DNA of 28,100 bases from Anaerolineae bacterium (GTDB lineage: Bacteria; Chloroflexota; Anaerolineae; Epilineales; Epilineaceae). A program made the position numbers and the translations under genes. Below the pieces are notes generated by a model, which worked only from the letters and a program-made list of their open reading frames with translations, was not told where the DNA came from and did no database searches. The first letter of the stretch is position 1. The number at the start of each line of letters is the position of its first letter. The stretch lies in the NCBI GenBank assembly GCA_046259645.1, contig JBJYWW010000218.1, positions 1-28,100 of the forward strand. Direction: 5' to 3'. This document shows positions 8,854 through 22,084 of this stretch, piece after piece.

Positions 8854-11800
8854 GTGCGAGCTCTGCTTAGGTGGGGGTGGCTGGCTGCCACTCCAGCGCT
8901 CATGGCGCTGTCGGTTGCGGCCGGCTCCGCGACGGTTGCCCATGCGCAGAGCAGCTGCACCGTGACCGGCGAGCGCTCGTTCGCCTTCCCCGAGAGCAAG
9001 CCCGTGCAGTTCGGCGGCGAGGTGGACGTCACCGTGTCGTTGATCCTCGACTGCCCCGGCGGCACGTGGCCGGACGCACTGACGATCAGCGAGGGCCTGA
9101 CGCCGGAGCTAGAGCTGGTCGAGGGTGTCGGCGTGACGCCAACGTCGCGCCTCGGCTCGGAGGTCGCGTGGCGCTTCGAGCAGCTTCCGCCGCGCGGTCA
9201 AGCTCTCGACGTGCTCTACAGCCTCTACGTTCTGCCGGATCCGTCGCGGTTCGGACTCACTCGCACTCTCGAGATCGACTGGCCGATGGCGGTCGAGATC
9301 GAGATCGGCGGTGCGTCGGAGCAGCTCCAACCACCGTCGGTTGATCCGCTAGCGGTCGCCGAGCGGCCAGGCGCACGCGACTGCCGCCGAATCGTCCAGG
9401 ACCACGCGGTCGAGCCGGGCGAGGTGCTGCAGGGCAGGCCCTTCGAGGTCCAGCTTAGCCTGCGGTTCGAGGCCTGCTTCGCCGCCGATCAGCGCCATCG
9501 CGCGGTGATCGCGGTGCAGCCGCCTCCGGACTACACCACCCACAACGTGATGGTGCCGGCGGTGGTCTCACTGCTCGCGGCGATCGACTCACACCAGCCT
9601 GGGGCGCGCGGCATGAGCGGCCTGTACTCGAACTCGTCCAGCTCGGTCGTGGCGATCGCACCCACCGTGGACCGCGAGAGAATCGCCCGCTCGCTGGCCC
9701 GGGTTCCGCTCGGACCGTTGGCCGGCAACGACGCCGCCGCCGCCGTGCGCGGCGCGTCGGGGCTTCTCGCGGACTGGACGGATCATCACGAGGTGGTCTA
9801 CTACCTGACCCATCCCGGCGCGCCGCGGGCGGACATCGATGAGGTACGGGACGCGCTGGCCGAGGCGTCGTCTCACGGCATCGAGATCGTGGCCGTGTGC
9901 ATCGGGGCCGGCGGACCAGGCCAGGACTGTGATCCGGCGCTAACCTACCAGCACGAGCCCGCGTCTTGGTCGGAGCTGGCCGCGGAGTCGGGCCAGCTGC
10001 CCAAGGAGCACGGCGGACCGCCGATGGCGGTCCGCGGGATCGACGTCATCGAGGGCATTCCGGGCTATTTGACCGTGGACGACGGCACGGTCGCCCCCCC
10101 ACCCACGTCGGTCCAGCACGGCGAGATGGAATGGCGAGGCTTGTCGGCCGCGGTCGACGAGCAGCTCACGTTCTCCTACGAGGCCCGCATCCAGGACTGG
10201 GGCCGCTTCCCGGTCGGGTCCGGCGGTCGGTTGACTCACGAGGACGCGGACGGTCGCGGGCTCGACACCGAGCTGCTGCTGCCGGGCTTCGTCACGATCC
10301 AGCCCGATCCGGGCGCCGACGGCTGCCGCGCTGCCGTCGCCAAGTCCGCGCGTCCCGCGCGCGTGCCGGTGGGCGAGCCGGTCAAGGTTCAGCTAGAGCT
10401 GACGGCGGACTGCCAGCAGCTCCACGACCGCATGCACGTAGTCCTCACCATGGACCGGTCCGGCTCCATGACTCACGGCGGCGCCGAGTACAGCTACATC
10501 AAGATGGCCGCCCGATCGCTCGCCGAGATGCTCGCCGTCGGTCCCGGCAACGAGCGGCGCTTCGGGTTGATCAGCCACGGGCTGGAGCCGGTGGTCGAGG
10601 TGCCGCTGACCAACGACCTGGCGGAGATCGCGTCGCGGATCGACGCGATGACCGGCAAGGGCCAAGACAATGTCCCACGATCGATAGCCATGGCCCACGA
10701 GATGCTGCGCGCGGCCAGGCCGGCGGACACCGACCGCCCCATGGAGGTGATCGTCGTGCTGTCCGACGGCGGTCAGAACTTCCCCTATGACGACGTCGTG
10801 GCGGCCGGCCAAGCCGCCAAGGACGACGGCGTCCTCCTGGTCTCGGCGTGCTCGCTGACCAACAACAACCAGTGCGACGTCATGTCGGAGATCGCCGGCG
10901 ATCGGCAGCACTACTACGAGGTGGATCGCATCGAGCAGACGCTCGACATGTTCGTGCGCCTGGGGATGCAGCTGCGCGAGGTGCCGCTGGCCGAGGTGAT
11001 CATCACCGACGATTTGCCGGACCACGTGCGCCTCGTGCCGGGCTCGGACCACCCGCCGGTGTCTCGGATAGAGGGCCGCCGGCTCGTCTGGGAGATCGAC
11101 GACGTCTCCGAAGTCGGCGCGAGGCCCAGCTATGAGATCCAGCCGCTGCTCCTCGGCCGCCAGCCGACCAACACGTGGGCCCAGGCGACCTTCCGCGACG
11201 AGAGGGGCCGCAGCGGCAGCCGCGTGTTCCCGGTGCCCGAAGTGGAGACATATCTGCCGGACCCGCGCGGCCCGTGCGACGTCGTGGCCGCGAAGTGGGC
11301 CGCACCTCTCGATCCGACGGTGGGCGAAAGCGTCACGGCACAGCTCACGGTCAGCGCCACGTGCCCGCGGACCGACGCTCCAGTCGATGCGGTGCTCGTC
11401 ATCGACCACTCCGAGTCTATGCGCAGCGGCAACCGGCTGGGCCTCGCCATCGACGCGGCGCTTGCGTTCATCGACGCGCTTGACCCGGACCGCGATCGTG
11501 TCGGGTTGGTTCCGTTCTCGACCACCGTCGACGAGCCGGTGCCGCTGACCCACGACTTCGACCTGGTTCGAACTGGGGTCTTCTGGCTCAACCCGGAGGG
11601 AACCACGGCCATTGGAGCCGCCCTTCGATCCGCCAAGCTGGTGATGGGCGCTCGGCGGACGGAGGCGAAGGCACTGGTGGTGCTGCTGACGGACGGCCGC
11701 GACCCGCAGCCGTGGATCATGCTCGACCAGGCGCAGGAGATGAAGGACGCCGACGTCACGATCGCGACGTTCTGCGCCGGCGAGTGCGACCCCGAGCTGG

Positions 11801-20440: not shown

Positions 20441-22084
20441 CTACTCGGCGAACGGCAACATGATGTGGTTCGTCAGGTCGGCGGGGTCCACCACGCCGAC
20501 GACCAGCTGCCCGCTCGTAGGATAGGCCCCCTCGTTGCCGGCGCGGTCGCGCGCGCGGCCGCGGAACTCGTAGATGTTCGTGTACTCACCGGTGAAGACC
20601 TCGCTCGTGCGCGTCGTGTTCGTGGTCCAGTCGCGCCACATCTCACGGTTGCGGCGGTACTGGATGTCGTAGGCCACCGCACCGCTGCCGCCGAAGTCCT
20701 CGCCGCGCCATGACACCGTGAACGTGGTGTTGTCGGTGCCTGACACCGGGTCGAACACGACCGTCGGCGCCACTCGATCGAGAATCGTCGACGCCTGCGG
20801 CGCTTTCGCCCGGGCGTCCTCTTCGTGCCCGGCGTTGTCGCGCGCGCCCACGGTGAACTCGTACTTGGCGTTGTCGACCATCGGGCTGTCGAAGATCCGC
20901 CCGGCCTCGGTGGAGCCCTCGATGAGCGGCAGCCACTCACCGCCGTTGACGCGGAAGTAGCAGTTGTAGGACTGGATGCCACTGGGCACCATGTCGGTGC
21001 CCGTCGGCTGATCCATGCCCTCCCAGTAAACCGTGAACGGTCCCGTCACGAACTCCGGCAGCGGCTTGGCGCTGGAGATCGGCGGGCTGAGGTCGACGTG
21101 CGTGCGCGTGTCGGCGTCCTTGGTCCGCTCAACGTTGCCGGCCTGGTCGACGGCGTAGACCGCGAACTCGTACACGCCGCCGTCGTCCGCAGGGTACGAG
21201 ATCTCGTAACGCTTGAGCTCGTCGCCCGACAGGAACCACTCGCCGCTGTTGCGGCGCGCATAGAGCCTGAAGAAGTCGATGCCCGTGTAGGGGCTGGGGT
21301 CCTCGCCGTCCCAGGACAGCGCGATGTCGGCGCGGGACGGCGCGCTGGCCTGCGTCGTGTACTGCGGCAGCGGGTCCATCGTTGACGTGGGCGCCTTCGT
21401 GTCGGTCTCGTGCTCGAGCCGCAGCTGCGGCTTGTTCGAGCCTTCGCGCGTGTCGAACGCCCTGAACGAGCCGTCGGCCTCATATCCTTGGATGTACAAG
21501 CCATGGAACTGGCGGTAGTTCTTGTTCCACGTCGGCACTCGTGCGCGGCGCACGGCGTCGTTCAAGCCGCCCCACTCGTACCAGCCACCGGAGGCCACGC
21601 CGATGCTGGTCGTGCCCAAGCGGCTGTCCTCGAAGCGGGGGAAGTTGTTCCACGTCACGCCTGTCTCCGGCCAGGAGTCCCTGACGCGGTAGATCACCAC
21701 GTCGCGGGACGAGTCGCTGATCGGTCCGGCGGCCCTCAAGAAGAGCCGCAGCTTCGAGTCGGTCACGGCTTGGCTCTTGCCGAGGTCGGACACGTCGAAC
21801 CACACCAGCGAGCGCGTTGCACCGTAGTCCACCGGTGACACGCGTTGCCCTACGTTCATCGTCGATGCCGTGCCGTAGTTGCTGTCGGCGTTGCGGCTCG
21901 ACACGAACGCGTCGCTCTTCGACTCGAGGGTGGTGGTGGCCTGCGGCGCGTCGGGGACGGCGCCGCGGTCGTCGGACGGGGCCGGCTGGGCCGCGGCCGG
22001 ATCTGTTGGGCCAAGGATGAGCAGGGCGGCCACGACTGTCGCGGCCGCCACGACATGCACGACATGGGCGGGGCGGATCATCAT
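20441..22084 (-). CDS. Secreted protein with a DNRLRE/CBM96-like domain and three FN3/Ig-like repeats
   Basis: Signal peptide ending AAA|QP. SDAFVSS...SNYG...RSLVWFDVS...SKLRL...FDTRE pattern, then repeats D..PP.S...W.GED...SG...Y...YEF...A.D.AGN/H. Tail NHIMLPFAE. Confidence 0.82.

Follow-up and report, generated by a model that had tools for sequence, protein, structure and literature searches.

Several tripartite systems are known that tag exported proteins with a short signature close to the C-terminus, including PEP-CTERM/exosortase, PGF-CTERM/archaeosortase, GlyGly-CTERM/rhombosortase and MYXO-CTERM/myxosortase, in each of which many diverse exported proteins share one signature that is followed by a transmembrane (TM) helix and a basic cluster. 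In the type 9 secretion system (T9SS) of Bacteroidota, the sortase PorU, a member of peptidase family C25, cuts off a C-terminal signal, there a folded domain of about 70–80 aa, and attaches the cargo to a surface glycolipid. Two NCBIfam models, NF050076 (sort_motif_YLP, 11 positions) and NF053834 (ultrashort_CTERM, 10 positions), furthermore describe a "YLP-box putative sorting motif-containing protein". Here, we analyzed a stretch of 28,100 nucleotides from an Anaerolineae bacterium (GenBank assembly GCA_046259645.1, contig JBJYWW010000218.1; in the following referred to as the window), in which three unrelated exported proteins, named P0001, P0002 and P0003, end in short hydrophobic tails that very probably represent divergent copies of this YLP-box. 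With a probability of roughly 0.6, we consider the YLP-box to be a tag for sortase-independent sorting to, or retention at, the cell envelope. Soils, sediments and wastewater sludge abound in Chloroflexota. To our knowledge, the envelope of these bacteria is poorly understood, including the surface retention of exoenzymes and adhesins.

A preliminary description of this DNA had pointed to three unrelated proteins with signal peptides that end in a hydrophobic-[L/I]-P-hydrophobic segment devoid of sortase-type signal parts, and coordinates, translations and the unrelated domain contents all agree with it. The N-termini of all three proteins are basic, hydrophobic signal peptides of the AxA type (in P0001 VRALLRWGWLAATPALMALSVAAGSATVAHA), and P0001 contains two or more VWA domains (VWA_2/VWA). 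Inspection of the three translations revealed neither an LPXTG motif, or even a T-G, nor a C-terminal TM helix, and an NCBIfam scan of the whole window proteins gave no match to any C-terminal sorting model at E ≤ 1. The YLP-box differs in this respect from the tripartite signals, since it is followed neither by a TM helix nor by a basic cluster, and their models remained unmatched at the same threshold. When the tails were compared with a core of aliphatic-aromatic-L-P-aliphatic-aliphatic and a basic residue approximately four positions after the Pro, P0001 (LYIPAA-SR) was a full match; the C-terminus of P0002, DLLLPVVLNGAQ, with LLLPVV, and that of P0003, with IMLPFA, share the Pro and the hydrophobic frame of this core but have neither the aromatic nor the basic residue. 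Scored with a position matrix that was trained on the same genome and, in this leave-window-out version, excluded the window's own proteins, the tail of P0001 is strong (18.4 bits, per-window p = 0.0005), that of P0002 moderate (8.1 bits, p = 0.0035) and that of P0003 weak (4.3 bits, p = 0.013). A repeat or terminator at the DNA level was set aside as the source of the tails, as the three differ in both residues and codons.

Orthologues are informative on the two weaker tails. In five orthologues of P0003 (42–63% identity), Pro544 never varies and the residues at –1 and –3 are always hydrophobic, while the flanks drift. Orthologues of P0002 from the same family (49–60% identity) end in CWR..LYLPLL, TYLPVV or LFLPFT, and homologues of P0001 continue from a Pro/Thr linker into tails such as IFLPSL, ILLPYA or VYLPLV. 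Because the Pro and the hydrophobic frame are kept in the orthologues, we accept the tails of P0002 and P0003 despite their low scores; as far as such alignments can tell, this conservation settles both as real boxes.

The window covers an entire contig of a metagenome-assembled genome (MAG; G000 in the following) of 2.43 Mb (256 contigs, 70% GC, 77% complete), in which genes were called from codon-position GC content; these calls as well as the signal-peptide predictor are crude heuristics of our own. Throughout this genome, a regular expression derived from the tails matched the last 15 aa of 36 of the 1447 genes, with 5.0 matches expected from interior windows, and the iterated position matrix yielded 50 to 57 C-terminal matches. 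The consensus over 50 tails is approximately L-Y-L-P-L-A-x-R and the matrix pattern reads [LIV]-[YFH]-[LVM]-P-[LVAI]-[AVL]-x-[RKN], with the Pro usually 4–8 residues from the protein end and basic residues enriched in the flanks at positions –4/–5 and +4. Within the last 18 residues, there are 2.07 motifs per 1000 aa, compared to 0.089 elsewhere (23-fold). Among 5'-complete genes, the strict heuristic assigned a signal peptide to 33 of 45 tail genes and to 253 of 1361 others (odds ratio 12, p = 9e-15), and several of the apparent exceptions, including P0001, are misses of the heuristic. The motif is consequently much more frequent at the C-termini of secreted than of non-secreted proteins, the very point on which the preliminary description had made its proposal depend. 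If boxes at any position are counted, 22% of the predicted signal-peptide proteins of the MAG carry one. Furthermore, at least 50% P/T/S within the 25 aa upstream was found for 16 of the 57 C-terminal YLP genes in comparison to 46 of 1565 other genes. The tail is a recurrent mark of Sec-exported proteins in a Chloroflexota lineage, and not a product of chance. All 114 YLP genes taken together are scattered and not clustered beyond chance (33 observed vs. 28.8 expected), and neighbor enrichment around them revealed no conserved family, as is expected for a general tag whose machinery is encoded elsewhere. Three paralogues in G000 (C68:10893-12065, C68:12564-13697 and C19:3726-4526) combine Pro/Thr linkers and YLP tails with open frames that lack a signal peptide and start close to a C-x-x-x-G-P / VF-[VL]-E-[YH] segment; the starts may be miscalled or the genes interrupted.

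The relation to the catalogued YLP-box is close. Boxes of the source genome and those of the NCBIfam models have in common the core aliphatic-Y-L-P-L-V-x-R, the phylum, the exported proteins and a mostly extreme C-terminal position. They differ in that the source genome prefers Ala at +2, is looser at the aromatic position (Y, F or H), has an end of 2–12 residues and places many boxes internally, ahead of a VWA domain. The curated cut-offs are 15 bits for NF050076 and 10 bits for NF053834; the tail of a relative from the same order, RRLYLPLVARVK, exceeds both with 15.7 and 13.3 bits. A scan of the whole source genome gave two sub-threshold, N-proximal matches for NF050076 and a single match above the cut-off for NF053834, located at one of these two sites. 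To judge from its sequences, the source lineage carries a relaxed variant of the YLP-box which is missed by the curated models. The preliminary description had named no characterised processing or anchoring machinery for such tails. The motif itself is not undescribed, as NF050076 and NF053834 already name it; the literature on the YLP-box, its models and Chloroflexota sorting signals yielded neither a publication on the motif nor a tested function. The core motif is present in NCBIfam, although apparently unpublished, and our finding is therefore largely a rediscovery. New are the relaxed variant, the combination of the YLP-box with a Cys-clamped VWA module, a quantified lack of association with sortases and a controlled but imperfect association with a PorU-like peptidase.

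To follow the tag across the phylum, we used a sample of 151 Chloroflexota genomes, of which 18 with at least 4 YLP-model matches were classified as YLP-rich; the sampled genomes are related. Model matches are concentrated in the families f8, f16, f17 and f32 and in one genus of f4, with background level elsewhere. Most genomes of the window's own order have 5–33 matches, and the loci of the P0003 orthologues lie in records titled as Anaerolineales or Ardenticatenales MAGs. In samples of 200 kb, two genomes of the same family contained 2–3 tails per ~110 genes and two of the same order 0–2 tails per 149 genes, whereas G043, from the same class, and G111, from another class, contained none. The YLP tag is therefore lineage-restricted and not phylum-wide, and the earlier statement that such tails are frequent on Chloroflexota exoproteins was too broad.

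Position within the protein is likewise more varied than a purely C-terminal signal would imply. Apart from ~57 C-terminal copies in the source MAG, the scan of whole proteins revealed ~26 proteins with a box 190–220 residues from the end and ~10 further boxes 20–60 residues after the signal peptide, an N-proximal placement that also applies to the two top model matches of the source genome. The earlier proposal had treated the tail as a C-terminal signal; given the boxes ahead of C-terminal VWA domains and after signal peptides, it is not strictly one. The internal context is fixed: a Pro/Thr linker, the box, L-[KR]-E-R-C and the VWA domain, which ends in another conserved Cys no more than a few residues from the C-terminus. 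In the alignment of this YLP-VWA module, which is also present in genomes of the same family, the Pro, both Cys and the D-x-S-x-S-M metal-site residues are invariant, and the VWA domain downstream of the box is probably clamped by a disulfide. An AlphaFold2 model gave a mean pLDDT (predicted local distance difference test) of 89.7 for the VWA fold and of ~55 for the block containing the box, and from this low value the box is probably flexible and outside of the fold. An example outside the window is C30:936-10151 (G000), with three adjacent genes. After the final Cys, many of these modules carry a mini-motif x-x-x-F-W-G-G-R or end in W-P (e.g., HDWSQPWP). In f16, a family with canonical boxes, approximately four-fifths of the sampled boxes are terminal and few are internal. 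Canonical tails, as seen in a family rich in model matches, have the form R-[VI]YLPLV-x-R followed by the stop codon, and in most of them the Pro stands four residues from the end.

The phylum sample also provided a candidate partner. Pfam Peptidase_C25 matched in 27 of the 151 genomes, namely in 17 of the 18 YLP-rich ones and in 10 of the 133 others, one of these 10 being the source genome, which is YLP-rich by its own matrix. CBM96, which served as control cargo domain (8/18 vs. 11/133), tracks the YLP-box far less tightly than C25. The C25 protein of the source genome (C192:806-1876) scores 269.8 bits against PF01364; its best match among solved structures is PorU (6za2, E = 2.5e-15), in comparison to ~1e-6 for gingipain R, and its GHG histidine and ATC cysteine motifs align with those of PorU. 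As in the T9SS, the tag co-occurs with a PorU-like C25 peptidase whose catalytic His and Cys align, and the Chloroflexota C25 proteins, like PorU as a surface protein, are themselves tagged. Unlike the domain-sized T9SS signal, the YLP signal comprises only ~8 residues and can be internal. A search for SprA_N gave no match in the source genome, and the control genomes likewise remained without a match; caspase-fold peptidases (C14) were not matched in the source genome either. Two further observations concern the C25 genes as such. In five genomes of f32, a full-length C25 gene directly adjoins a sortase gene (combined coordinates G144:C2:318045-320410, G099:C7:102625-104993, G048:C1:280944-283306, G060:C65:41221-43586 and G126:C241:19403-21790), which suggests a C25-sortase pairing in that lineage. 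Moreover, G000:C68:1854-7232 and one counterpart per genome in family f1 encode exported proteins of ~1750–1850 aa that match only the first ~170 positions of the C25 model; the former ends in AFMPFAMLDR, a sub-threshold YLP-like tail, and its contig contains three YLP-tailed genes.

Several explanations other than a dedicated tag have to be considered for the three window tails. One is that only P0001 bears a true box and that LLLPVV and IMLPFA are ordinary hydrophobic ends. The modest leave-window-out scores of P0002 and P0003 and their failure to match the NCBIfam models would be in line with this, but it is very improbable given that in both orthologue sets the Pro and its hydrophobic frame persist between drifting flanks, and that many of the orthologues have better boxes (LYLPLL, TYLPVV, IQLPVA, IWLPHL). 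Least probable of all is that the YLP-box represents an unusual substrate of the genome's own sortases, i.e., an ultrashort signal of the LPXTG type. The resemblance is real, as the LPXTG signal is also a short L-P motif near the C-terminus of Sec-exported proteins, often behind a Pro/Thr stalk and with a basic end, and the source genome does encode two sortases. However, the YLP-box has no T-G and no hydrophobic helix, is followed by only 2–8 residues and can be internal, and the two sortases have classical substrates at hand: LPTTG and MPQTG signals, each with a hydrophobic helix and an Arg-rich tail (C141:3125-4006 and C81:7908-8717), which indicates that two sorting systems coexist in one genome. 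A phyletic link to sortases is equally missing. Sortases are found in 110 of the 151 genomes, comprising 15 of the 18 YLP-rich genomes and 95 of the 133 others, so that YLP richness shows no association with sortase in this sample. No sortase match was obtained in G076, G012 and G044, and G076, a complete genome, nevertheless has four canonical tails in 327 sampled genes. A sortase was therefore rejected as partner enzyme, in support of the earlier view that the tail is sortase-independent. As an aside on sortases in this phylum, members of family f2 (e.g., G043:C1:2764960-2765361, G139:C5:75300-75713 and G112:C21:70436-70837) have sortase domains inside open frames of 2400–3600 aa, an architecture of a "surface protein carrying its own sortase".

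For a sorting or retention tag, we envisage an element of about eight residues, roughly [R]-[LIV]-[YFH]-[LVM]-P-[LVAI]-[AVL]-x-[RK], that marks Sec-exported proteins in certain Chloroflexota lineages and would be read in extended form, outside of the membrane, by a dedicated envelope factor keeping or sorting the protein at the cell surface. As to the nature of this factor, we tentatively prefer a PorU-like C25 cysteine peptidase that would recognize the box, cut there and possibly hand the protein on to an acceptor in the envelope, in the manner of PorU in the T9SS; the leaving group would be whatever lies downstream, be it 2–8 residues or a whole Cys-clamped VWA domain. Two points led us to this preference, namely the phyletic link and, in canonical lineages, a prime side that is minimal and almost constant in length. 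That Chloroflexota use such a C25 enzyme as their sorting peptidase or transpeptidase, independently of any type 9 machinery and with the YLP-box as its recognition signal, is a more doubtful proposition still. About equally likely as processing by C25 is a non-covalent docking peptide, in which the box would tether the protein, without cleavage, by binding to a receptor of the S-layer, sheath or wall; it would probably do so by adding a beta-strand or as a ligand in a groove. Beta-strand docking to the S-layer, as suggested in the preliminary description, may be one form of this, with processing by C25 as the alternative. Docking accounts better for the position independence in the source genome and for the YLP-rich genomes without C25, and would suit a box that always lies in a flexible linker of low pLDDT. 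On the other hand, neither a receptor candidate nor a conserved neighbor gene was found around the 114 YLP genes, and the canonical Pro stands almost exactly four residues from the C-terminus, a fixed position which points more to recognition that depends on the terminus, or to a minimal requirement on the prime side, than to a free-floating ligand. An interfacial membrane or lipid anchor, with six hydrophobic residues flanked by Arg/Lys partitioning into the outer face of the cytoplasmic membrane without any partner, is improbable. The hydrophobic core, the enriched basic flanks and the lack of a fixed partner gene could be explained in this way, but six residues would make a very weak anchor, and an invariant central Pro together with the preferred aromatic at –2, both conserved across lineages, argues for specific recognition and not for bulk hydrophobicity.

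A number of observations weigh against a sorting or retention tag handled by C25. The three window tails, searched alone, and the best boxes elsewhere in the source genome match neither NF050076 nor NF053834 at E ≤ 10. C25 was not matched in two of the 13 relatives with at least ten YLP matches, namely G187 (17 matches, completeness 91%) and G174 (11 matches, completeness 96%). G163 (97% complete), a genome of the same family in which orthologues with tails are present, shows only a weak partial C25 match. The C25 proteins bear YLP tails themselves (C192 in the source genome, L144 in G076) and may thus simply be typical cargo. In addition, the compared genomes are kin, so that the C25 association rests on approximately six lineages. 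Boxes that closely follow the signal peptide fit poorly into a cut-and-attach model, and the T9SS C-terminal domain (TIGR04183) was not found in the source genome, which is 77% complete.

If the YLP-box is indeed a tag, its presence on approximately a fifth of the predicted exported proteins would make it of necessity a main route of surface organization, and, with the variant of this lineage being missed by current NCBI models, such proteins go unannotated. Internal boxes, the lack of a sortase association and the tighter tracking of C25 in comparison to a control cargo domain narrow the range of mechanisms and name one testable enzyme. Were the C25 proposal true, surface display would have a third "sortase" chemistry of independent evolutionary origin, with an ultrashort signal of ~8 residues, and the same signal could also release or shed whole downstream domains, e.g., the Cys-clamped VWA module.

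Table 1. Positions of the three exported proteins in the window and of their tail elements.
Feature	Position	Strand	Description
P0001	8572/8854..12339	+	Exported multi-VWA protein; open frame from 8572, signal peptide from GTG at 8854
P0001 Pro/Thr-rich linker	12190..12309	+	Directly ahead of the tail
P0001 YLP-box core LYIPAA	12313..12330	+	Followed by SR and stop codon; protein end RLYIPAASR
P0002	12368..14869	-	Exported Big_9/tandem-95 repeat protein; likely start ATG at 14833
P0002 degenerate YLP-box core LLLPVV	12386..12403	-	Followed by LNGAQ and stop codon
P0003	20441..22084	-	Exported DNRLRE/CBM96 protein with Ig-like repeats
P0003 degenerate YLP-box core IMLPFA	20447..20464	-	Followed by E and stop codon; protein end NHIMLPFAE

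Among the genes flanking P0001–P0003 in the window, no candidate for a sorting machine is present. The neighbors are of a housekeeping kind and encode a 5'-nucleotidase, a kinase, a CitMHS transporter, PPK2, a DEAD helicase, an acetyl-CoA synthetase and a 2-oxoacid:ferredoxin oxidoreductase.

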